Shown: piece after piece, positions 1,693 through 38,017 of the stretch | Layout of the letters: every line of letters begins with the position of its first letter | Position numbering within the stretch: the first letter of the stretch is position 1 | Notes under the pieces: generated by a model | The model's input: only the letters and a program-made list of their open reading frames with translations | Told to the model about the DNA's origin: nothing | Databases searched by the model: none | Program-made: the position numbers and the translations under genes | NCBI GenBank assembly: GCA_964291215.2 | Contig: OZ219791.1 | Location: forward strand, 288,001 to 352,000 | From: Alphaproteobacteria bacterium | Lineage (GTDB): Bacteria > Pseudomonadota > Alphaproteobacteria > MPNO01 > UBA830 | Length of the DNA: 64,000 nt | Direction of reading: 5' to 3'

Positions 1693-1965
1693 CGCGTATC
1701 CGGCAGCCTTCAAGGGTCCGCCTCCCTGTCTGTTCTCGTCTTGCCGCGCTCCGGGACGCGGATCCGGCTCCCGGTCGGCCTGTCCCACTCCCTTTTCATT
1801 CCAGATCGTTACCACCGTTTCCCAGAAAGCGAAATCTGCCGGTAACTGCTCACCCCCTGGTTCCGGCTTGATGTCGGGGTAGAGCAACAAACGGGTTTTC
1901 GTGGAGATTTGATACTGCAGGCCGATTCGTTTAGTGGTGGTAATCGAGAACGACGGGGACCGCCA

Positions 1966-2094
1966 GTGGGCTACTTTGGATCGAAGGCGACGAGCGGGCT
2001 GTGCCAGCTACTTCCGGGGCTCCAGCCCCCGCATGATCTGTATGTGGAAACGCATCTCGGAAACGGCGCGCTAATGAAGCGCAAGGCCGGGTGA
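1966..2094 (+). pseudogene. N-terminal remnant of the IS-borne adenine MTase
   Basis: VGYFGSKATSGLCQ..PPHDLYVETHLGNGALMKRK, followed by a deletion to the stop codon. Confidence 0.8.
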
Positions 2095-5005
2095 TGGCGA
2101 CGGTCAACGCGGCGCGCGAGGAGTTCGAAGCGGCCAAGACCGCGGCGCTGCCGGCAAGGTGGCGGAAGAGGCCGTCATCCGCGTCCTCCTGCTCGACATC
2201 ATCATCGTCGTCCTTCTGGAGAAGACCACGCACGAGCCGGAACTCCGGTCTGCCGCCGTCACAGACGGACAAGAGCGTGCCGGGAGCAACGGCAAGGGCC
2301 CGAAGCCGAACCGGCAGATGGGCGACAACCTGCCATCGTCGAGGAGACGGTCGCGGCCTGCGACGCCTGCGGCGCTGACGGCCCCGTCGATCGGGAGCGC
2401 CGCGTCCTCTATGACATCGTGTTCGAGGTCGTCGAGCGCCGCGCCGAGATCAAGGAATGCCCGAAGTGCAAGGCCCGGGGCCGGTTCCCCGACAACATCC
2501 CGTGCAGTACGGCATCGGCATCCAGGCCCTCGTTATCAACCTGCTGGTCGCCCAGATGCTATCCCTGCGCCGTCGCGCTCGTGCAGGCGATTTCCGGCAT
2601 CAAGCTCTCCGAGGCAACCTGCCTCGGCTATGCTTTCACGATGCGTCATGGGAGGAGGCCGCCGTGGCGCACCTCCTGCAACGCCCGATGTCGACGATTT
2701 CGGATCAACAGCAAGTGGCTCCATGTCGTGGGACCCTGACGTGCAAGTTCCCGCACCGCAAGCGCGGGCAAGAGATCGGCCCGTGCTACAAGGGCGTCCT
2801 GGGCCTCGTACATGGGCCAGTGTAGCCACCAGCTGTGCGGCAGCCACCTGCTGCGCGAACTGACCTTTGTCGTCGAGGCTACCGCGCGACTGATGAAGAG
2901 CCTGCTCCGCGAGGTCTGCCACAAGGTCAACAAGAGCGCATCCAAAACCCTGAACGACGCCGGGCGCAAGCGCTACCGCACCATCAGGGCGCCAGGGAAC
3001 TGCCCGACATTCCGCCGCCGACGAAAGGAAAACGCATCGCAAACGCGCACAACCTGCACGAACGTCTCGTGAAACACGAAAACCTGCGCTTCACAGACGA
3101 CCATTGCGGTAGGGAACCGGGTTGCCCCGGTCCCCCCGCACAGAACCGGACATGCGCTGTTCGCATCCGGCTCCTCCCCTGACGACAAGGCGCTGGTTTG
3201 GCCACGGGTGGCGGATGCTGGCTCAGTGGGCGGCGGCAAGGGTGTCTATGTCCCCGGTGAAGTCCTTTTGGGAGCGTCGCCGAAGGGCACGCATGAGCAG
3301 CCGTTTGCATTGGTGTATGAACCCCTGCAGGGATTGACTGCTTCCCGGGACGGCGTAGTAGCAGCCGTTGATAACTCACCACTTGGCCGTTTCGTGCCGG
3401 TTGTCGTGCCATCGCATGCGCAAGGCCCCCTTGATCCGCCGCAGGGTGCCCGTTTGCGAGACGGTTTGCGACCGACCCTGAACCTGCCTTTCCTCGTCTG
3501 TTCGCAGAAGTGCGTCATGCCGAGGAAGTCGAACGTCTTGCCCTGCTTCCGGCGGTTCGCTCTGGCAAACCGACCGAACTCGATGATTTTCCGGGTGCAG
3601 TTCAAGTGGGCCAGCCTCTCCCCAAGGTCCCGGAGAAAGCGCTGCGCATCGCCCAGATGCTGAAAGCCGCACACGAAGTCGTCCGCATAATGATCGTGTC
3701 GCCTCCAGCCATCCGCTTGCGCCAGTGGTTCTGGAACCAGTCGCACGTAGTGCAGGTAAACGTTCGCGAGGCAGGGCGATACAATCGCCCCCTGCGGTGT
3801 TCCCTTGCCAGTCGGTCCCTTCCATGACGCCGGCGTCACTTGATGATCAGCCGGATAACCCCCCGATCCGTTTCTCGAGCATCGCAATCAGATGGTCGCG
3901 GTCGAGATTGTCGAAGAACCCACGGGCGTCAACGATCCAGTTGACCTTCCGCCGTTCCACCGTGACGGCGTCGAGCGCGTGATGCGTCCCGCGCCCCGGC
4001 CGGAAACCGTAGCTGAAACCGAGGAACTCCGTTTCGTAGAGCGGCACCAGAATCACACTGCCCGCTGAAGAATCTTGTCCGAGGCAATGCCAAGCGGTCG
4101 TTGCCCTCCATCCTCCTTGGGAATGTAGACCCCGGAGGCGCTCGGTACGCACCCCTGTGCACACGGTCGTGTAGGTCAACCAGTTCCACACCTTCCGCGT
4201 ACGCTTGCCACACAACGCCCCGCCGCCGCGTCCTTCCTCAAGGAATGGAACGCGTCGTGCAGGACATCACGTGGTGGAGTAAAGACGCTCTTCCGGGTTC
4301 CTCTTCGCTACCTGCGTTCAGCCGCCTGTGACCCCCGCTTCTGCGCGCGGCGCGGGCCAATCGCATTGCCCTTCCCTCCAGCAACTCCGCAGGCTCCGGA
4401 GAACCTTTGTTCGCTGCCTTCAGCGGTACTATGGCCGAATCTGACTTCTCGTTCATCATCGGTTTACGGAATAGTTCCTTTCCTCTGCGGCCCCTCCACG
4501 ACAGAGGGGCAAGACCTCCCAGGTCCCTGCTTCGGCCATGGTTCTCGGACCCCGCGGAGCCCCCCTCACCAACGCGGCTTGCGGGGTGTTGCCTTCGGCC
4601 ACGACCTCGGCACTCCGGTTTCAAAGCATCTCGTGGCTCAATAGCCCGGCCCACGCCTGCCGCTCCCCAACGCGTCGCCTGACGCCTCACGACGCATGGT
4701 TCACGGAGAAAGTGGTGGTTAGCCTCTCTTCCTGCCGGGACTTGCACCCGGCAACATTCCACCAGTTAGCCTGGCGCACCCGACGTCAGCTTCACCAACA
4801 ATGCCGGAGAACGGAAGATCAGGATGGCAAAGGTCAAGGTGTCCGGATGCTTCCGCTCCACGCAAAAGCATGGTGCCGGGGCTCGAGCTACCTCACCTCC
4901 ATGGCCGCACTCGGCTACAACCCACTCGTCGCCACCCAGATCGCCTTCGACGGAAAAGCCGCAGACATCATCAACGAGCACTACGACCAATCAGAACCCA
5001 ACTAG
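2094..5005 (+). pseudogene. tnpC: IS66 TnpC transposase, multiply frameshifted and split by the intron
   Basis: SRNSGLPPSQTD, Zn-finger C/H remnants, PVQYG, HQLCGSHLLREL, FTNNAGE..IRMAKVKVSGCFRS. Confidence 0.8.
3103..4779 (-). mobile_element. ltrA: Group II intron (copy 1) with eroded RT/maturase ORF
   Basis: 5' end GTGCG at 4779; domain V/VI GAGCCGGATGCG..GTCCGGTTCTGTGCGGGGGG..CCCTACCGCAAT ending at 3103; RT motifs SYGFRPGR, GTPQG, YADDFV; removing it restores gacgaccccgacgtcagc, matching the uninterrupted tnpC of copy G. Confidence 0.9.
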
Positions 5006-5186
5006 GGGTGAGTAGATACATCTGCCGGACTGCGTCCCCTGGGAGTCCTGCAGCCCGGCAGTTCAGGAACGATGCCATCATTTGCCTCAAATTTTTCCGT
5101 CGCTACTATAACATCGGCGCCCGGGTCTGTGACTGCATGCTGGAGACCGGAGCGGGCATTCCGATACAGACAGCCGAGTAAACAGG

Positions 5187-6155
5187 TTGATCCGAGACAG
5201 CCTTTTTCCACCTGTAGAGCCCCATTTGACCGGCATGCTCCGTGTCGATTCGATCCACGAAATCTACTGGGAACAGTCTGGTCGCGCGGACGGTGTGCCG
5301 GTGATGTTTCTGCATGGGGGGCCTGGCGCCGGCACGACATCGGCGCAGCGCCGTTTCTTCGATCCTGAGGCTTGGCGAATCGTCCTCTTCGACCAGCGCG
5401 GCGCAGGCCGTTCACGTCCGCGCGGCGAGCTTCAGCACAACACCACCACGCATCTTGTCGAGGACATCGAACAGCTCAGAAAGCATCTCGGGATCGACCG
5501 TTTCGTTCTCTTCGGCGGTTCGTGGGGCAGCACGCTGGCGCTATGCTACGCGGAGGCGTTCCCGGAGAACTGCCTCGGGCTCGTGCTGCGCGGGATATTC
5601 CTCGGCCGCCGGAAGGAAGTGGAATGGTTCCTTTGCGGTCTTCGCGCGGTGTTTCCGGAGGCATGGAACGAGCTGGTGTCGGTGCTGCCAGAAGGCTCGC
5701 GAGATGACGTTCTCGGAAGCTTCGGCCAGCGCCTTTTCGATCCCGATCCCGCTGTTCATCTGCCGGCCGCCCGCGCATGGAGCCGGTACGAAGGATCGTG
5801 CTCGACGCTGCTGCCGAGTCCCGAGACGCTCGCCGCGTTCGGCGAAGACGACATGGCCTATGCCCTGGCCAAGATCGAGGTGCATTACTTCGTCAACGAC
5901 AACTTCCTTGGCGAGAACGAGTTGCTTTCCAATCTCGACGCGGTGACGCATCTGCCCTGCACCATCATTCAGGGCCGTTACGACATGATTTGCCCGATGA
6001 CCTCGGCATATGAACTGCATGGCTCCTGGCCGGGTTCCGAGCTGCTCGTCGTCCCCGACGCCGGGCATTCGGCGATGGACCCCGGGATCCGGACGGTGCT
6101 GGTCCGAACCACTGAAAAATGGAAATCGGCATTCGATGTGACCGGTCCGCGCTGA
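5187..6155 (+). CDS. pip: Proline iminopeptidase
   Basis: FLHGGPGAG, FDQRGAGRS, GGSWGSTL, QGRYDMICP, AGHS. Confidence 0.95.
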   Translation: MIRDSLFPPVEPHLTGMLRVDSIHEIYWEQSGRADGVPVMFLHGGPGAGTTSAQRRFFDPEAWRIVLFDQRGAGRSRPRGELQHNTTTHLVEDIEQLRKHLGIDRFVLFGGSWGSTLALCYAEAFPENCLGLVLRGIFLGRRKEVEWFLCGLRAVFPEAWNELVSVLPEGSRDDVLGSFGQRLFDPDPAVHLPAARAWSRYEGSCSTLLPSPETLAAFGEDDMAYALAKIEVHYFVNDNFLGENELLSNLDAVTHLPCTIIQGRYDMICPMTSAYELHGSWPGSELLVVPDAGHSAMDPGIRTVLVRTTEKWKSAFDVTGPR

Positions 6156-6430: not shown

Positions 6431-6879
6431 CTCTCCGTCGCGTCATCCCGAGCTGGCGGAAGCCCTTGAGGCGGTCGCGCTCTTCGCAGAGTTCACGGTC
6501 CCGACCCTGGTGTCCCAACATGCTGCGTCGGCAACGGACCGGCTCCGGAATCAGGGTTTTCGCTGCGCCGCGGTAAGACACCTTGTCCGGTCCTGGCATA
6601 AGATGCCACCGATGCCTGCCGGATCCGTGGCTGGTTGTCAGGATGCGCTCCCGGATCCGCTGCGATCGCCATCCGTGCCGGCGATCGCGGTTCAGGAAGC
6701 CCCTTGGGTCCTCGGGGGGCGAAATGCGACAATCCCGCCGCCCGGGCGCTCGATCCGATCTTTCCCGGGAGCCGGGTTTCAGCTATTCTTCCGGGCTGAC
6801 AAAGGTGAGCTTCCGACAGACGGCATGCGCGCCGGTGCGTTGCCCGCAGGGTGTGCACCAGGACACGGAGGGCTGTTCA

Positions 6880-7359
6880 ATGGCACTTGCGACATTCGGA
6901 GCCGGCTGCTTCTGGGGCGTCGAGGCGGCCTTTCGCAAGATGGACGGGGTTACCGCGACATCGGTCGGCTACATGGGCGGGCATGTCCCCGACGTCAACT
7001 ATGGCATGGTCTGCACGGGAACGACCGGACACGCCGAGGTCGTTCAGGTCGAGTTCGATCCTGACCGGGTATCCTACGAGGACCTCTTGCAGACCTTTTG
7101 GTCGTGCCACGACCCGACCCAGGTCAACCGCCAGGGACCGGACATTGGAACGCAGTACCGTACCGTGATCTTCTGCCATGACGACGCGCAGGCAGCAGCC
7201 GCCGAGACCTCGAAACAGGCCCTTGAGGGCCACGGATATCCGATCGCGACGAAGATCGAACCGGTGTCGGATTACTGGATCGCCGAAGACTACCACCAGC
7301 AATATTTCGAGAAGCAGGGCGCGCACCACCGCTCGCGCCTGTTCGGCATGTTCAGGTGA
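6880..7359 (+). CDS. msrA: Peptide-methionine (S)-S-oxide reductase
   Basis: [40 protein letters not shown]; RBS GGAGG upstream. Confidence 0.95.
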
Positions 7360-7743
7360 CGCCGGTCACAAGACGGTTTTTCGGCAATTTTCCGGCCCCT
7401 GACCGGGGCCGCTGGCCAGGGATCCGTCCCGCGGTCAGGCTCTGCGAGCTCCCGGCAGAGCTTGCGCCGTGGTCCTCTTCTGCCGGCTGATCAGCCGGCG
7501 GACTGCCCGCTAGCCGTGCGCTCGGTCATCCGCGCCGTCGATTCCGCCGTCTGGTGGTAGAGAGGCTCCCGCTCTTCATCCTTCCGGCGGCGTGCTGCGC
7601 CCAGGGCTCTTCTTTTGTAACTACCCAGGTACCCTGCCAAGTGTGAGAGCTTGCTGATTTTGTTCGCCGTGTCGCTGCTCTCGGCCTTGACTGCATAGGC
7701 GCGCGCGCCTATGGGTTGCCCTCTCGCATGGGAGGAGCGGCTG

Positions 7744-8403
7744 GTGGGGTATTTCGGATCGAAGGCGACGACGGGTCTGAGCCAGGCGCTGATTGCGCTG
7801 ATGCCGCCGCACTCTGTCTATATCGAGAGTCACCTGGGGGGCGGTGCGCTGATGAAGCGCAAGCCTGCTGCCGTGCGCTCGATCGGGATCGACCTCGATG
7901 AGCGGGCGCTTGAGGCCTTTGGCTGCGACTACCCGGTGGAGTTGGTGCATGGCTGCGCCCACTCCTTTCTGGCGTCGTTTGCGTTTCTGGGCCCGGAGCT
8001 GGTCTACAGCGATCCGCCCTATCTGCACGCGACCCGGCGTTCGTCGCAGCGCTACCGCTTCGAGTATGCGGAGGCCGACCACGTCGCGCTGCTTGAGCTG
8101 CTCAAGGGTCTGCCCTGCCAGGTGATGGTCTCGGGCCACCCGTCTGCGCTCTATGACGACCTGCTGTCGGGCTGGCGCCGGCTGGCGCTGCAGGTGACGA
8201 CCCAGGCCCGGGTGCGGACCGAGGTGGTGTGGTTCAACTTCGCGCCCGACCGGGTGCACTGGGCGCGCTTCGCCGGCCGGAACTTCACCGACCGCCAGCG
8301 CATCAAGCGCAAGGCGGCCAACTGGGGCCGGCTCTACGAGGCCATGCCGGCGGGCGAACGCCTGGCGGTGCTGGCCGCGATCATGGCCGTCGAGGTCCCG
8401 TGA
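7744..8403 (+). CDS. N6-adenine DNA methyltransferase, Dam/D12 alpha-class-like, about 219 aa, intact ORF
   Basis: Motif X YFGSK, motif I-like ESHLGGG, IGIDLD, motif IV VYSDPPY, later MVS and EVVWFNF; GTG start after GGAGGAG at 7731-7737. Confidence 0.85.
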   Translation: MGYFGSKATTGLSQALIALMPPHSVYIESHLGGGALMKRKPAAVRSIGIDLDERALEAFGCDYPVELVHGCAHSFLASFAFLGPELVYSDPPYLHATRRSSQRYRFEYAEADHVALLELLKGLPCQVMVSGHPSALYDDLLSGWRRLALQVTTQARVRTEVVWFNFAPDRVHWARFAGRNFTDRQRIKRKAANWGRLYEAMPAGERLAVLAAIMAVEVP

Positions 8404-8471
8404 CGGTGGCGCGAGGACCTCGCCGGCCACGACGAGGCTTTTGCGTGCCTGCAGGACCTTTTCACCCCACA

Positions 8472-9877
8472 ATGCCTGGCGATGACGGTCATCAAAGCCA
8501 TCCGGGCCAGGGGCTGCTGCGCCTGAGCGCGGCGCTGGTCAGGGAGAACGACGCGCTGGAGCGGGAGAACGCCCACTTGCGCGAGCGGATTGCCGAACTC
8601 GAGCGCAGTGCCGCGCTCGACAGCACCACCAGCTCCCGGTCGCCGGCCAGCGACGGTCTGAAGAAGAAGAGCGGACCCCAGCGCACCCGGAGCGGCACGT
8701 CCGACAGGCGGCGGCCAGCCACAAGGGAACCACTCTGGAGCGGACCGCGACGCCCGACCACGTCGTCGATCATGATCCCTGCGCCTGTGCGGGCTGCGGC
8801 GCGCCGCTGTCGGCCGCTGAGCGTCACCGAGCCCCCGTCTGCCGGCAGGTCTTCGATGTGCCGCAGCCCCTTGAGGTCACCGAGCACCGCTGCCTCTGTG
8901 CCGCCTGCGGCACCGTGACGACAGCCGTCTTCCCGAACGGCGCCCCGGTCCAGTACGGGCCGCGTATCACCGCGTGGGGGACCTACCTGCTGCACGCGCA
9001 GTTCATTCCGGAGAAGCGCGTCGCCGAAGTCATGAGCGACCTCTTCGCGGTCAGGCTCTCAACCGCCACCATCGCCGCCATGGGCAGACGCACCGCCCGG
9101 CGCTTCGAGGGCTTCCTCGACCGTGTCGGCGAGATCATCCGCACCGCGGCCCCGGTCAAACACCTCGACGAGACCGGCATCCGCATCGCCGCCCGGACCC
9201 AATGGCTCCACGTACTGTGCACCCCGTTGCTGACCATCCTGCGCATCGCCGCCGGGCGCAGCCACATCGACGAGAAGCTCAACGGCATCGTCATCCATGA
9301 CGACTACGCCACCTACTTCGCTCTCCAAGGCGTGCGCCACGGGGCCTGCAATGCCCATCACCTGCGCGAACTCCAAGCCCTGATCGAGATCGAGAACTGG
9401 GCAGCCACCACGCACCCGCTCCTCAGCCGTGCCAACAGAGCCGCCCGCTTCGCCCGCAAGAATGACCGCGACCTGCCCGCTTCACTGGTGGCCCGCATCT
9501 CCCGAGCCTGGGACCGCATCCTTGAGCAGGCCATCGCCTCTCACGAAGAGATGGCGCCCCTCCAGAGCGGAAAGCACGGACGACAAAAGCGCCGCATCGG
9601 TCACAACCTCGCCCTCCGGCTCCAGAAATACAAGGAGGGCTGCCTGCGCTTCCTCACCGACCCGAGAACCCCCTTCTCGAACAACCAGGCCGAGCGCGAC
9701 CTCCGCATGGGCAAGCTGCGCCAGAAAATCTCGGGCGGCTTCCGATCAATGCAAGGCGCCCGCGACTTCGCCAGCCTGCGTTCCGTCATCGCAACAGCCC
9801 GAAAGCAACGCTGGAATGTCCTCGAAACCCTGGCGCATCCCGATCCCATGCAGCTGATCCCGAGACTGCGCCTCTGA
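8472..9877 (+). pseudogene. tnpC: IS66 TnpC transposase; N-terminal frameshifts, DDE region continuous from 8858 to 9877
   Basis: Coiled coil LRERIAELE, DSTTSSRSPASD, PVQYGPR, HLDETG, IHDDY, CNAHHLREL, FSNNQAERDLRMGKLRQKISGGFRS. Confidence 0.85.
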
Positions 9878-10089
9878 AATCCCCCGCCGCTCGCCTCCGC
9901 GTCCGCGGCAGCAGACCGGAAGCTTCAGTCCATAACCCGTGGCTGATCGCCGGAAGCAGACCTGGGCAGTTACCTTCTTTTTTCCGGTTTCGTCCGACGA
10001 GGGGGTGTTGTATGCAGATCTGGAGGTCCATTCGGGAGCGGATTTCGTTGTCGATATGTCGGTTCCGACCTTGAGACGGTGCCACCAAC

Positions 10090-11463
10090 TTCAAGAACGG
10101 CCACTCTGACACGGTTGTCCGCCGCCGATCGCGACAACAGAATGGTCCTAGTGCTGCGCCGGAGTTTCTTGCCACAAGATCGACGGCCTTTCTTACGACA
10201 GGACGTTCCTTTATCTCCTGGCGCCATTGCGTGACGTTGGAGAAGCCGTCGAGCGGTTGCCCCATGGCCTTCGCGATCAGAATCGATGGTCAGCTGGCCA
10301 TGTCGGCAATGGTGTAGTCCTCGCCGACGAGATAGGCGCGGTCGGCGAGGCGCCGTTCGAGGACGCCGATGCAGCGGTTGTATTCGTTGCCGTAACGGGT
10401 CCTCGAATAGGCCTCGTCGCCCGGCGCATAGTTGACGAAATGGCTGAACCGGTCGGCCATCGGACCGAGATTGCCGACCTGCCAGAAGAGCCGTTCGAGC
10501 GTCTCCTTGCGGCCGACGGGATCGTCGGGCAGGAAACGCCCGGCCTTGCGCGCGAGATGGAGGAGGATGACGCCCGACTCGAAGATCGGCAGCGGCTTGC
10601 TGCCGTATTCCGCCGGTAGATCGCGATCGACGATCGGTCGGCGGCAGGTGCTGCCGGCGCTCGCCGAGCGCGTGGGTCTCGAGCTTTCGCTGCCGCGGAG
10701 CGTCCCCGACCGTCGTGCCCGCCGTCCCGTCCGATGACGCTCGCCTGCCTGCTGCAGGATCTCGGCCCGGTCTCGCCGGTGGGCGGCACCGACGATCGCC
10801 GGCTCCGGGAGGCGATGATGGCGACGCACCACCCGCCGGGACGGGTGCCCCGGCGGCCAGATGCGCTACCGGGTTCACTCGCAGCACCACGGCACACGGG
10901 ATCGGCTTCGGGTCCGCAACCTGGCAGCTGCGGGCGCGGGACAAGTGGATGGTCTGCCGACGTCCGCGCCGCCAACATCAGGCGCGTGATCTGCCATCAA
11001 CGGTTTCTTCCCGGCGTCCGGGTCTGCGGGCTGGGGTCCTGCGCATGGCGGCGGAGCGCGTCGCCGACGACCGGGAGGCCCGCGGTGCGTCCGGTGGCGG
11101 CCTGTACCCATGTCGGCGTGGAGCGGTTACCGCTGCCACTGCGCCGGCTGGACCGTGGCCGGGCGGGGCAGCAAGGGGAGCGTCGGCATTCTTGCCGGTC
11201 TGGCGGTGACGCCGGAGGGCCGGCCCCCGGACCTGTTCACGATGGACGCAGCCTTCCGGCAGGAGCCCGGGGAGGACAGCCGGCGCCGGGCGGGCACGGG
11301 AGCCGGCATGCGGTTGTTGGGGCTGAGTGCAAGAAATTCGGGCATGAACTGTTCACCCTTGCCGATATTGACCGGGACCAGGCGGTAGTCGAGCCCGCAT
11401 TCCTCGAGCATGATGGCGACTTTCCAGCCGTTGGGTGTCGGCCAGTAGTAGAAGTCGATCATG
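10090..11463 (-). pseudogene. YfcG/YghU-like glutathione S-transferase, split by a foreign fragment and carrying a premature TGA
   Basis: N part MIDFYYWPTPNGWK..SPNNRMPA at about 11302-11463; C part IVDRD..IFESGVIL..YTIADMAS* below 10635. Confidence 0.8.
10636..11301 (+). mobile_element. End-less internal fragment of a DUF4338/IS4-like transposase
   Basis: GFGSATWQLRARDKW..WSADVRAANIRRVICHQRFLPGVRV resembles DUF4338; no IRs or TSD seen. Confidence 0.55.
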
Positions 11464-13624
11464 CGCCGTTGTCCCCGCCGGCGACCGCCGCGGTGCCGTT
11501 CTCGATCATGCAGGTGGCTTCGGTCTTCGAGAATCCGGCCTCGGCCAGGATCTCCCTGGTGTGCTCGCCGAGGTCCGGGCCTTTCAAACTGCGGGCACGC
11601 AGGTCGGTCTCCGCCATTTCGATTCACGGACACCTGACTGGTTCGCCGGCGCGTTGTGCTCCGCCGACGCCACCCGTCACGGTCTGGCTCGCGAGCTTTG
11701 CGAGCGCACCGGCTGGCGCAACGCGCCTGGTCGTCCATGCCTCTCGCGGCGGCCTGCCCGGACACGCGGGTGGTCTGCGACCGCGAGGGCGACTTCCGGG
11801 AGCTGCATGCCGTGGACGCCGGGACCGCACTGCTGGTGCGCGCGAGACAGCGCGTGCGGACGGCAACGAGGAGTGCCTGCGGGAGCATGTCGCGGCCCGT
11901 GACGGAGCTGACGGTCCCGGCGGCCCGCGCGCCCGCAAGGAGCGCGTTGTCCGTCTCGAGATCCGCACAGGTGGCGCCGCCGCACCGCGAGGGCGACGCC
12001 TGTGTCCATGTTCGCGGCCAGCGAGACGGCGACGAGGCGCTGCTGACCACCGAACGCCCGGCGCAAGCGGAGGCCGTGCACGCGGCGACCGGCTGGTACC
12101 GGACGCGCATCGAGAGCTGGTTCCGCACGCTGAAGACCCGGATCAAGGACCGCCGGCGGGCCGACGACCTGAAGAAGTGCCTCGCCGTCCATGTCCTGAC
12201 CGTCCTTGCGCGGGAGCATCCCTCGACCCCGGCGAGCGAGGTGTTTGCGGAGGAGGACATCGACCTGCTCCACACGCTGCCGGAAGCGCAGGGTCATCGC
12301 AACGTCGTGAGGATGGCGGACGGGAAGGCGCCCGACATCAGGGCGGTGGTCATCGATCTCGGACGCCTCGTCGGATCGCATCTTGCCGCGCGGCCATCGC
12401 TCCCGGGAACGAAGAAGGTCTGGCGGGGTCTCGAGCGGCGGCACTGGGCGATCCAGGTGCGCGACGCACTCGGCGAGAGAAGGCGGGAATGAGATGCCTG
12501 TACAAGTGTGGGATGTTGAAAGGGTCCGGGCCGCCCATGCGCACAGATGTCGGCGTCGTTGAAAAACGCGCGGCCGGCCGGGCCTGGCGGATGCGTCCGG
12601 CCAGCGCGTGTTCGATTTCTATGACGACGCCGTTGGCTTCCGTCTGAGGATGGGCTATCGCCTCGCGGCGTATTAGTACGGGCGCGCACGAGACATCTTC
12701 GGCTTCGAGCCGCACAAGGTACTCGTCGGTGCCCAGCGTGCGCAGCGCGTCCTGCGTCAGCTGCAGCCGTTCGTCGATGTTCTTCTGGCGCAGAGCCGGC
12801 GTGCGGAACCGCGGATCGTCGGGCCATTGCGGCCTGTTCAGCGCCCGCGCCAGCGCCGCCCATTCCCGGTCGCTCTGCACCGCGACACTGATATGGCCGT
12901 CCGCGGTCTCGTAGATCAGGTCGATGAAGCTCGCGGCCCGAGCCTGCGGAAACGGATTGTCCACGAAAGTCTGGGCAGCCATGTCGGAACCCCAGAGAAA
13001 GGCGATGATGGTATCGAGCATGGAGAGGCGGACATGCTGGCCCTCTCAGGTGCGTTCGCGTGCCAGCAAGGCGGCGGTAATCGATTGCGCGGCCGCCATT
13101 CCCGTCAGTTTGTCGGGGAGGGTCGTGCGCACCAGGCGCGGGCGTTCTCCGTCTGACCCGGCCTGGATGGTGGTCAGTCCCGAGAGGGCCTGGACCAGCG
13201 GATCGTAGACGGGCTTGGTCGCGTAGGGCCCCTCGAAACCGAATCCGCAAATCGACACGTAGATGATTCCAGACGCCGCCTCGCCGATCAGTGCTTCGCC
13301 GATGCCCATGCGCTCGGCGACGCCCGGCTGGAAATTCTGGATGAACACGTCGGCGCCAGCAGCCAGCCGCATCAACGCCGCGATGCCCTCCGGGCGCTTG
13401 AGACTGAGCACGATCGAGCGCTTGTTGCGGTTGTTGTTGAGGAAGTTTGCGGAAAACCCGTTCCACGTGTTGGTCGAGGCGCACGTGTGGTCGCCGCCGG
13501 CCGGGTTCTCGACCTTGATGACGTCCGAACCCTGATCGACCAGCAGCATCGTGGCCGATGGCCCGGAGACCATCGAGGTCACGTCGACGATCCGGACACC
13601 GTGCAGCGGTCCGTGTGCAGGCAT
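11460..13624 (-). pseudogene. CaiB/BaiF family CoA-transferase, frameshifted near 13045 and interrupted by the IS4 element
   Basis: GPLHGVRIVDVT..SGPSAT..VIKVE..NRNKRSI..; the C-terminus GPDLGEHTREIL resumes below 11580. Confidence 0.8.
11581..12522 (+). mobile_element. Internally deleted IS4-family (IS50/Tn5-like) element with a DUF4338-type N-terminus
   Basis: Ends CTTTCAA and TTGAAAG; 9-bp TSD GGTCCGGGC at 11572-11580 and 12523-12531; VCDREGD, LLTT, WYRTRIESWFRTLKT. Confidence 0.8.
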
Positions 13625-18402: not shown

Positions 18403-19950
18403 GTATCTACTCACCCCTAGTTGGGTTCTGATTGGTCGTAGTGCTCGTTGATGATGTCTGCGGCTTTTCCGTCGAGGGCGATCTGGGTGGCGACGTGATG
18501 ATTGTAGCCGAGTGCGGCCATGGAGGTGAGGTAGCTTGAGCCCCGGCACCATGCTTTTGCGTGGAGCGGAAGCATCCGGACACCTTGACCTTTGCCATCC
18601 TGATCTTCTGTTCTCCGGCATTGTTGGTGAAGCTGACGTCGGGGTTGTCTATGAAGCGCAGGTTTTCGTGTTTCACGAGACGTTCGTGCAGGTTGTGCGC
18701 GTTTGCTATGCGTCCACGTTTTCCTTTCGTCGGGATGTCGGGCAGTTCCTTGGCGCCCTGATGGTGCGGTAGCGCTTGTGCACGGCCCGGCGTCGTTCAG
18801 GGTCTTGGATGCGCTGTTGTTGATCTTGTGGCAGACCTCGCGGAGCAGGCTCTTCATCAGTCGCGCGGTAGCCTCGACGACAAAGGTCAGTTCGCGCAGC
18901 AGGTGGCTGCCGCACAGCTGGTGGCTACACTGGCCCATGTACGAGGCCCAGGACGCCCTTGTAGCACGGGCCGATCTCTTGCCTCCCGGCCGCGCTTGCG
19001 GTGCGGGAACTTGCACGTCAGGGTCCCACGACATGAAGCCACTTACTGTTGATCCGAAATCGTCGACATCGGGCGTTGCAGGAGGTGCGCCACGGCGGCC
19101 TCCTCCCATGACGCATCGTGAAAGCATAGCTGAGGCAGGTTGCCTCGGAGAGCTTGATGCCGGAGATCGCCTGCACGAGCGCGACAGCACGGCGCAGGGA
19201 CAGCATCTGGGCGACCAGCAGGTTGATGACGAGGGCCTGGATGCCGATGCCGTACTGCACGGGATGTTGTCGGGGAACCGGCCCCGGGCCTTGCACTTCG
19301 GGCATTCCTTGATCTCGGCGCGGCGCTCGACGACCTCGAACACGATGTCGTGCGGCGCTCCCGATCGACGGGGCCGTCGATGTCAGCGCCGCAGGCGTCG
19401 CAGGCCGCGACCGTCTCCTCGACGATGGTCTTGCGCAGGTTGTCGCCCATCTGCCGGTTCGGCTTCGGGCCCTTGCTCCCGGCACGCTCTTGTCCGTCTG
19501 TGACGGCGGCAGACCGGAGTTCCGGCTCGTGCGTGGTCTTCTCCAGAAGGACGACGATGAGGATGTCGAGCAGGATGACGAAGACGCGGATCACGGCCTC
19601 TTTCGGCACCTTGCCGGCAGCGCCACGGTCTTGGCCGCTTCGAACTCCTCGCGCGCCGCGTTGACCGTCGCCATCACCCGACCTCGACGGTCATGATCGT
19701 CGCGAGCATCGCCTGGCGCTCGCCCGGCCGCATCTTCCGGTACTCCGCCGCCCGGCCTTGTGCTTCATCAGCGCGCCGCCTCCGATGGCACAGCCCGCTC
19801 GTCGCCTTCGATCCAAAGTAGCTCACTGCCGGTCCCCGTCGTTCTCGATAACCACCACTAAACGAATCGGCATGCAGTGTCAAATCTCCACGAAAACCCG
19901 TTCGTTGCTCTACCCCGACATCAAGCCGGAACCAAGGGGTGAGCAGTTAC
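18403..19950 (-). mobile_element. IS66-MTase element copy D: both IRs, MTase internally deleted, no TSD
   Basis: Both ends match copy A; the flanks AGGCGAAC and GTCCTGAT differ. Confidence 0.88.
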
Positions 19951-36091: not shown

Positions 36092-38017
36092 GTATCTACT
36101 CACCCCTAGTTGGGTTCTGATTGGTCGTAGTGCTCGTTGATGATGTCTGCGGCTTTTCCGTCGAGGGCGATCTGGGTGGCGACGAGTGGGTTGTAGCCGA
36201 GTGCGGCCATGGAGGTGAGGTAGCTTGAGCCCCGGCACCATGCTTTTGCGTGGAGCGGAAGCATCCGGACACCTTGAGCTTTGCCATCCTGATCTTCTGT
36301 TCTCCGGCATTGTTGGTGAAGCTGACATCGGGGTCGTCTGTGAAGCGCAGGTTTTCGTGTTTCATGAGACGTTCGTGCAGGTTGTGCGCGTTTGCTATGC
36401 GTTTTCCTTTCGGCGGGATGTCGGGCAGTTCCTTGGCGCCCTGATGGTGCGGTAGCGCACGGCCTCGTTCAGGGTCCTGGATGCGCTCTTGTTGATCTTG
36501 TGGCAGACCTCGCGGAGCAGGCTCTTCATCAGTCGCGCGGTAGCCTCGACGACGAAGGTCAGTTCGCGCAGCAGGTGGCTGCCGCTGGTGGCTACACTGC
36601 CATGTACGAGGCCCAGGACGCCCTTGTAGCACGGGCCGATCTCTTGCTTGCGGTGCGGGAACTTGCACGTCCCGACGACATGGAGCCACTTGCTGTTGAT
36701 CCGAAATCGTCGACATCGGGCGTTGCAGGAGGTGCGCCACGGCGGCCTCCTCCCATGACGCATCGTGAAAGCATGGCCGAGGCCTCGGAGAGCTTGATGC
36801 CGGAGATCGCCTGCACGAGCGCGACGGCGCAGGGACAGCATTTGGGCGACCAGCAGGTTGATGACGAGGGCTTGGATGCCGTACTGCACGGGATGTTGTC
36901 GGGGAACCGGGCCTTGCACTTTGGGCATTCCTCGGCGTCGACGCGGCACGACCTCGAACACGATGTCGTGCGGCGCTCCCGATCGACGGGGTCGGCGCCG
37001 CAGGCGTCGCAGGCCGCGACCGTTTCCTCGACGATGGTCTTGCGCAGGTTGTCGCCCATCTGCCGGTTCGGCTTCGGGCCCTTGCTCCCGGCACGCTTCG
37101 CGCTCTCGTCCGTCTGTGACGGCGGCAGACCGGAGTTCCGGCTCGTGCGTGGTTTTCTCCAGAAGGACGACGATGAGGATGTCGAGGACGCGGATCACGG
37201 CCTCTTCCGACACCTTACCGGCCGCACGCAGCGCCGCAGCCTTGGCCGCTTCGAACTCCTCGCGCGCCGCCCGTCGCCATCACCCGGCCTCGCCGCGAGC
37301 ATCGCCCGGCGCTCACCCGGCGGCATCTTCCGGTACTCCGCCTTGCGCTTGATGCGCTGACGGTCCGTGCGGTTCCGCCCGGCATGGCTGGCCGAGTGCA
37401 TCCCCGCCCGGGCTCGAAGTTGAGCCACACCACCTCGGTGCGGACCCGGGGCGTCACCTGCACGACGATGCGGCGCCAGTCTCGCAGCAGGTCGTCGTAC
37501 AACGCCGAGGGGCAGCCCAAGACCATCGCCTGACACGGCAGCCCCTTGAGCAGTTCAAGGAGTTCGACATGGTCGGCTTCGGTGTAGTCGTGGCGGTATC
37601 GCCGCTTCGACCGGCGGGTCGCCTGCAGGGGTCGCTGCAGACCAGTTCCGTGCCCCGGAACGCAAGGCCGGCCAGGAACGCGTGGGCGCAGCCGTGGATC
37701 AGTTTCACCGGATAGTCGCACCCGAATCCGTCCAGCGCTCCCGGTCGATCCCGATAGAGCATGGCGCCGGCGCCTTGCGCTTCATCAGCGCGCCGCCTCC
37801 CGGATGCGTTTCCACATACAGATCATGCGGGGGCTGGAGCCCCGGAAGCAGCTGGCACAGCCCGCTCGTCGCTTTCGATCCAAAGTAGCCCACTGGCGGT
37901 CCCCGTCGTTCTCGATGACCACCACTAAACGAATCAGCCTGCAGTGTCAAATCTCCACGAAAACCCGTTCGTTACTCTACCCCGACATCAAGCCGGAACC
38001 AGGGGGTGAGCAGTTAC
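36092..38017 (-). mobile_element. IS66-MTase element copy G: full-span eroded MTase at 37280-37893 plus tnpC, no TSD
   Basis: Both IRs present; MTase remnants from YFGSK through RTEVVWLNF and TDRQRIKRKA; flanks ACTCGACG and CAAAAATC. Confidence 0.9.

Follow-up and report, generated by a model that had tools for sequence, protein, structure and literature searches.

The window analysed here is a stretch of 64,000 nucleotides from an Alphaproteobacteria genome (GCA_964291215.2, contig OZ219791.1, positions 288,001 to 352,000), and at 7617-9973 it contains a transposase-broken, recently inserted, single-transposase IS66 insertion sequence (IS) of 2357 bp. The gene upstream of its transposase gene tnpC encodes a homologue of the plasmid repressor Upf31. 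Comparative sequence data suggest that this gene is probably a portable self-repressing cassette, which would throttle the coupled transposase by allowing a burst on entry into a cell, followed by silence and by a shield against read-through. This proposal starts from features that were observed directly, namely the anatomy of the element, its homology to Upf31, a conserved palindrome, the stop/start overlap with tnpC and recent mobility. The parts are known, whereas their combination is undescribed as far as the literature search reaches; no description of this layout was found, with ISfinder, TnPedia and REBASE lying outside the scope of that search. The element is made up as follows.

7609-7616, plus strand: left target-site duplication CTTCTTTT (sequence; empty-site joint 7608 to 9974 in X2 and X3)
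7617-7630, plus strand: left inverted repeat (sequence; intact relatives have the same end)
7744-8403, plus strand: Upf31-family gene, 219 aa, with a Dam-type catalytic fold and without the target-recognition domain (homology, model)
8011-8022, plus strand: DPPY motif codons within the 7744-8403 gene
8257-8400, plus strand: C-terminal helical domain, about residues 172-219, with F176, F181 and W194 (model helices, Upf31 alignment)
8400-8918, plus strand: 5' part of tnpC, DUF6444, 172 codons, from a GTG overlapping the upstream TGA
8486-9877, plus strand: 3' part of tnpC, out of frame with the 5' part and carrying the DDE domain; first GTG at 8858 (PF03050, NF033517)
9960-9973, minus strand: right inverted repeat (sequence)
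9974-9981, plus strand: right target-site duplication (sequence; comparison of genome copies)

The terminal inverted repeats (left GTAACTACCCAGGT, right GTAACTGCCCAGGT) match at 13 of 14 positions and start with GTAA, and the 8-bp target duplication CTTCTTTT is present on both sides, at 7609-7616 and 9974-9981. These limits agree with those given by the initial annotation. Short terminal inverted repeats starting with GTAA are a feature of the IS66 family. The only genes are the Upf31-family gene and then tnpC; tnpA and tnpB are not found upstream. Twelve near-identical copies are present in the genome, 11 of them with the 8-bp duplication and 10 with an intact gene for the 219-aa protein. The insertion in the window is recent, because contigs of samples X2 and X3 join 7608 to 9974 and thus show the site empty. 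The samples X1, X2 and X3 come from one study, and X1 is possibly the source of the assembly.

The upstream reading frame (7744-8403) is intact with 219 codons and contains DPPY, as had been claimed. The protein shares 43% identity over 221 aa (E 1e-63) with Upf31 of pBP136, and the similarity covers the full length including the C-terminal domain, in which F176, F181 and W194 align with Y180, F185 and W198 of Upf31. According to the Upf31 report (PMC11997246), Upf31 cut the activity of its own promoter about 50-fold, from 4.76 to 0.09 units, and the exchange Y180A/F185A/W198A abolished the repression. Upf31 showed neither GATC nor other methylation there, with no single-molecule real-time (SMRT) or DpnI signal after induction in a methylase-free strain; the report finds homologues nearly confined to IncP-1beta plasmids and classes the motif order as beta (PMC11997246). 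In the window protein, the S-adenosylmethionine (SAM) motif is located at residues 28-34 and precedes DPPY at 90-93. A SAM motif before DPPY is not the beta order.

The upstream protein had no match in Pfam, a TIGR00571 score of 24.8 against a cut-off of 114.85, and a weak PADLOC MTase_II match. Its structure model (predicted local distance difference test score 85) is closest in fold to the alpha-class enzymes E. coli Dam and DpnM (template modelling score 0.55), with which it shares the catalytic fold and the SAM motif before DPPY. It differs from them in that about 90 residues of the target-recognition domain between motifs III and IV are missing (residues 37-85 align with DpnM 50-189), and in that an extra helical domain (helices 181-199 and 203-217) is added at the C-terminal end. 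Gamma-class enzymes carry the recognition domain at the place of these helices. The best match of the C-terminal domain in a protein atlas scored 0.85 and was unnamed. The idea of a Dam-like, self-methylating element is therefore not supported in that form, given the absence of the recognition domain, the family score far below the cut-off and the methylation-negative result for Upf31, the closest homologue to have been tested (PMC11997246).

Homologues of the protein are numerous (3692 clusters; 1195 representatives at E<=1e-30) and occur on 196 plasmids, 134 of them conjugative, and in 95 phages. The plasmid homologues adjoin tra/stbB genes, and in phage SEN5 the homologue is located one short reading frame behind the replication nickase gene. 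Several distant homologues (P0134, P0196, P0206, P0207, P0224, P0234, P0251 and P0266) have unrelated low-complexity inserts exactly at the place of the missing Dam recognition domain; others are fused with a C5 methylase (P0171, P0225), a MerR helix-turn-helix (P0184) or an integrase SAM-like domain (P0165). In the RNA run X23, contigs of relatives span the methylase gene, although contig depth cannot show expression.

Related loci were selected by the upstream gene, so its presence is given by construction, and these top-match sets are biased toward close relatives; the genome loci are the best 80 of 311, from 17 genomes, and the metagenome loci the best 80 of 447. The tnpC gene was found directly behind the upstream gene in 78/80 genome loci, which bears out both the conserved architecture claimed earlier and the linkage to IS66 TnpC expected for the downstream neighbour. 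Its start overlaps the upstream stop in all 68 intact tnpC genes of this set (-4 in 65, -8 in three). Six metagenome loci with less than 100 bp downstream were excluded, and a transposase lies behind the gene in 69 of the remaining 74: a second TnpC lineage, which shares 31% identity with the first, in 63, other IS66 TnpCs in three, IS701-like transposases in two and ISKra4 in one, with five giving no match; some of the transposase queries were drawn from the scored loci and thus match themselves. The IS701-like (L100, L123) and ISKra4 (L115) neighbours begin about 100-220 bp after the gene; with element ends undefined, they may be later insertions. L100 and L123 also have in common the cassette, the IS701-like transposase (77% identical) and, upstream, a divergent hypothetical gene. 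In genome G037 (L205-L207), a 3212-bp element with GTAAGCGGTTAAA ends combines the cassette with a classical-type TnpC, which had no BLAST match to the other TnpCs at E 1e-3; about 700 bp more are carried downstream of this TnpC. The 2431-bp element L057 from a metagenome-assembled genome (MAG) of Dehalococcoidia is 99.3-99.5% identical to L043, L064, L069 and L074 from Alphaproteobacteria MAGs, which reflects either recent cross-phylum spread or a binning error. Several small-share runs are labelled sponge metagenome; no habitat is claimed.

Phylogenetic trees of both proteins were compared. In the tree of the upstream protein (48 sequences), the 33 IS and metagenome rows form one clade (100/99) within plasmid and phage homologues, and the window lineage is joined with the subfamily-B gene of the same genome (100/99; this second element type is described below), while their TnpCs are distant. 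In the TnpC tree (17 sequences, with three long rows left out), a single clade for all gene-carrying TnpCs was rejected (p-AU 4.8e-5, approximately unbiased test), and the window lineage grouped with the single-gene elements L196-L198 (100/100). Because the upstream proteins form one clade while the TnpCs are distant and non-monophyletic, the cassette appears to have passed from one transposase to another; a single gain followed by losses would be a less likely alternative. The window TnpC is 34% identical over 96% of its length to the IS66 of pHTA426, which is the only IS66 on its plasmid, and this plasmid is listed with one ISBst12-group copy in PMC8024623. The nearest plasmid relatives examined have no gene annotated upstream of tnpC. 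Like the ISBst12 group, which has tnpC alone, the window element has GTAA ends and an 8-bp duplication; unlike it, it has an extra gene, promoter and operator upstream of tnpC. The tnpA and tnpB genes that lie upstream of tnpC in classical IS66 elements are absent from it. The initial annotation was right to place the methylase-like gene upstream of tnpC; however, the reading as a substitute for tnpA/tnpB does not simply hold, because its closest relatives by TnpC are ISBst12-type elements with a single gene, and the gene would be a gain.

The control region between the left end and the upstream gene is predicted to contain the following features.

7687-7692, plus strand: predicted -35 hexamer TTGACT (TTGAC anchor in 78/80 metagenome loci; register of the tested upf31 promoter region)
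7694-7713, no strand: predicted operator CATAG-N10-CTATG, right half overlapping the -10 (palindrome conservation)
7710-7715, plus strand: predicted -10 TATGGG, 17 bp from the -35 (alignment of metagenome loci)
7715-7741, plus strand: leader hairpin, 3' arm covering the GGAGG ribosome site (fold prediction)

Behind TTGA, the upf31 promoter and the window promoter are alike: an 8-bp half-site is separated by 10 free bases from its partner, which overlaps the -10. In the 78 metagenome loci with the TTGAC anchor (one of them mis-anchored), eight positions pair about the best symmetry axis; the half-site within the promoter spacer is kept at 67-77 of the 78 loci per position, and the 10-bp middle is free. 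The pattern CAYNG-N10-CNRTG was found within 150 bp upstream of the gene in 19/35 IS and metagenome, 28/39 phage and 2/4 plasmid representatives, whereas other spacers gave 0-1 matches and shuffles at most three. In 54/64 sites, against 35.6 expected, the free N of one half agrees with that of the other, with kin that are not independent. The operator core of the window is present at the 12 copies and at one other place in 6.15 Mb. The -10 is TATGCT in most relatives and TATGGG in the window copy; a sigma-70 consensus scan gave no matches and did not pick up the predicted -10. The ATG at 7711 was rejected as gene start, as it lies within the -10 box and a stop follows in relatives. Across the genome, CAYNG-N10-CNRTG occurs at 1067 sites against 456-835 for other spacers (645 against 299-603 distinct sites), but an operator network was rejected, since the excess comes from single matches inside multi-copy IS coding regions.

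The operator also varies together with the protein. Among 91 proteins, the strongest covariation with operator position 26 was that of residue 181 (p 1.6e-6). With L153 dropped, all 10 proteins with H or R at 181 have the G9/C26 operator variant, and 77 of the 80 with F are without it. The pairing implies three changes on the tree, and three of three independent pairs agree. A9 changes in the G9/C26 variant and A11 in phages; because no adenine is fixed across the operator variants, reading of the operator by the C-terminal domain would be favoured over base flipping. The palindrome was found at neither end of the eight elements scanned, and the regulatory role suggested earlier is thus supported at the promoter but not at the IS ends. 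Plasmid and phage homologues (L081, L083, L292-L371) often have 2-4 tandem operators upstream. In the window's genome, C2:2408399, C1:1351449 and C2:3133988 represent two more cassette-bearing left-end types, damaged and with variant operators; the type at C2:2408399 has R181 with CTACG, which fits the covariation.

A further element of the putative switch is the leader hairpin, which in the 88 IS-type leaders starts directly behind the -10 and extends over the ribosome site. Its 5' arm in the window starts upstream of the predicted transcription start, which is placed near 7722, and in 71 of the 88 leaders the predicted native RNA leaves the ribosome site more open. Compared with shuffles, the 36-nt leader fold had z -2.26 in 35 IS-borne and z -0.28 in 46 non-IS leaders (p 6e-7). 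When the sequence upstream of -26 was shuffled, the ribosome site opened in 30/35 IS and 17/46 non-IS leaders. The hairpin arms (e.g. L088, L096, L113) often hold paired GATC sites just after the -10. These might be an input of host Dam in other hosts; the window copy is without them. Control at the transposase promoter, together with a read-through RNA hairpin that conceals the ribosome site, is found in IS10 and IS50, where the controllers are host Dam, antisense RNA or an inhibitor protein. The window element resembles them in promoter control and read-through shield, whereas its predicted controller is a methylase-fold protein encoded by the element itself.

The transposase gene is broken, which corrects the initial annotation. 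The 3' reading frame is an IS66 TnpC (PF03050, 128.9 bits, E 3e-37; NF033517, 231.8 with a cut-off of 180); however, the frame from the coupled GTG at 8400 stops after at most 172 codons in 12/12 genome copies, and nowhere in the genome does a reading frame span the full TnpC of this lineage. Against the intact relatives L004 and L016, the window tnpC shows about ten deletions of 5-12 bp. A 17-bp gap can be read as two losses, 9 bp from the 3' end of the upstream gene and 8 bp at the start of tnpC; the comparison with the X3 contig also shows this 8-bp deletion. Contigs of X1 and X2 carry the deleted form without gaps, so the deletions are real and an assembly artefact was ruled out. A programmed frameshift was considered, and no canonical slippery site was seen by eye near 8709-8720. 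The upstream gene holds one of ten deletions against 3.1 expected (p 0.14), and selective retention of the methylase gene in the broken copy was rejected as not significant. Many 5-12-bp deletions, often at short repeats, were seen in IS copies genome-wide and in the window at 8400-9400. A near-identical form in X3, which still contains the lost letters and would represent an undeleted parent, has 37 extra bases and two other letters over 8508-8958; because so many bases were deleted with only two substitutions, a strong bias to short deletions is suggested in this lineage.

The diverged subfamily B carries the same layout, as had been proposed, in two whole genes only, both located outside the window; its window copies are stubs or deletion-damaged, and none is intact. 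They are listed here.

1842-5019, plus strand: subfamily-B stub copy, 3178 bp, longer than usual, with an 8-bp duplication
18403-19950, minus strand: subfamily-B stub copy, 1548 bp
36092-38017, minus strand: subfamily-B copy, 1926 bp, in which the methylase gene is longer but damaged by deletions
22364, 30301 and 56535, minus strand: further damaged subfamily-B left ends

Among 233 subfamily-B left ends in the genome, 173 are stubs with the gene deleted after codon 40, 21 extend into the gene (one of these resembles a stub variant) and 39 are without the gene start. An 8-9 bp duplication flanks 107 of 151 complete stubs, the median distance of stub copies to the nearest copy is 2.2% (117 compared), and the stub deletion joints are also present in X1, X2 and X3. 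A 42-codon leader ending in the TGATG overlap is kept by 73 complete stubs, and eight more keep a 64-codon in-frame leader. The subfamily-B protein of this genome has H at 176 and H or R at 181, and the right operator half-site is broken. Subfamily B is also the most abundant repeat, with about 170-180 copies by 100-bp probes against 12 of the window type; the next families have about 90 and 60-70 copies. This abundance fits the loss of a brake. Repeats (20-mers seen at least four times) make up 26% of the genome, which contains at least eight repeat families of 20-180 copies, most with broken reading frames.

According to the proposed mechanism, the protein would dimerise and, through contacts of its C-terminal helices with the DNA, bind CATAG-N10-CTATG at the -10, and would shut the single promoter serving both genes. 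In a naive recipient cell without the repressor, a short burst of both genes would be followed by silencing. The leader hairpin would block translation of host read-through RNA, and an insertion behind a host promoter could not bypass the switch. An intact parent would have moved the 12 broken copies in trans. Compared with Upf31 (upf31.0, of the IncP-1beta plasmids pBP136 and R751), the full-length homology, the C-terminal aromatic triad, the place of the promoter palindrome and its 10-bp middle are the same. However, Upf31 is a lone plasmid gene with a CATCG half-site, whereas the window gene heads an IS operon coupled to tnpC, with a CATAG half-site and an added leader hairpin.

Several observations weigh against this self-repressing cassette. 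Repression is demonstrated for the plasmid Upf31 only (PMC11997246). The covariation comprises three independent pairs (sign test p 0.25), its operator trait was defined after looking, and in some intact elements (L040/L168, L089) the operator is poor. The hairpin test uses a predicted start site and related sequences, and the fold of the window leader itself reaches only z -1.8. The tnpC start of the metagenome lineage does not overlap the stop but follows it at 3-30 bp. No helper TnpC acting in trans was found in the assembly. The excess of subfamily B is one case at about twice the next family, other IS families here have 45-90 copies, and elements with intact gene and operator reach dozens (28 matches in G037). 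Moreover, DPPY and E28 are each kept in 81/81 representatives with less than 85% mutual identity, and such invariant catalytic residues seem to exceed the needs of a pure repressor. The conserved SAM/DPPY pocket may still methylate something other than GATC. A rather doubtful extension is a Dam-derived enzyme whose recognition domain was swapped for a C-terminal operator-reading module, and which would both repress and methylate its own promoter. If true, it would be a portable, self-written epigenetic switch for several unrelated transposase lineages, firing on entry into a host; loss of the switch would release a copy-number burst as in subfamily B, and the negative SMRT result for Upf31 would then reflect a long recognition site with few occurrences in the genome used for that test.

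The invariant catalytic and SAM-binding residues, the absent target-recognition domain and the abundance of homologues on conjugative plasmids, beside tra/stbB and behind a phage replication nickase, would also agree with a protective cargo. The protein would then be an adenine methylase of low specificity, perhaps acting on single strands, whose self-limited entry burst shields the DNA from restriction; autorepression would merely limit toxicity, and control of tnpC would be a side effect. A precedent is M.EcoGIX, which together with M.BceJIII is described in PMC7736820 as a single-strand methylase with activity shown; like the window gene, both are small, belong to mobile DNA as orphan methylases and are silent in steady state. 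This explanation is unlikely. M.EcoGIX and M.BceJIII belong to the different beta family (PMC7736820), for which reason M.BceJIII was rejected as a homologue, and the window protein does not have the beta motif order. Furthermore, Upf31 gave no SMRT or DpnI signal (PMC11997246), the form most frequent in this genome has spread without carrying the gene, and the IS-only hairpin and the stop/start overlap point to control of the transposase. The leaders retained by the subfamily-B stubs, the multiplication of that stub lineage above all others and the several transposase families found behind the cassette raise another view, that the cassette is kept as a portable promoter with a translated leader, and that the repressor is a dispensable hitch-hiker. 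This is quite unlikely, since gene and operator are kept intact jointly across many IS lineages and change together, and the full gene is present in most elements outside this genome, though the searches selected for it. Both views are partly compatible with the self-repressing cassette. By far the most improbable proposal is a Dam-like enzyme with GATC or the IS ends as its target, which would thereby regulate those ends or rewrite the host methylome. The Dam and DpnM folds and the weak TIGR00571 and PADLOC matches agree with it; however, the recognition-domain residues are missing, the conserved site is at the promoter and at neither end, the operator variants are without a fixed adenine, and Upf31 does not restore GATC methylation (PMC11997246).

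In the window, the element is located downstream of msrA in the same orientation, and read-through could occur there. The intact neighbours are an alpha/beta hydrolase gene (5187-6155, proline iminopeptidase-like by eye) and MsrA (6583-7359). On the minus strand, a glutathione S-transferase-like gene (10290-11300, from its translation by eye) is apparently split into pieces; the piece that was scanned had no Pfam match, and IS-like sequence lies nearby at about 11400-12300.

The regulation of IS66 elements is poorly understood, and a concrete circuit is offered here, which would consist of a repressor, an operator, coupling to tnpC and a read-through shield, with a named residue-base pair (residue 181 and operator position 9/26). 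Upf31, studied only on IncP-1beta plasmids, is extended to phages and IS elements. Thousands of genes annotated as 'DNA adenine methylase' may be regulators, and counts of defence methylases would then be inflated.

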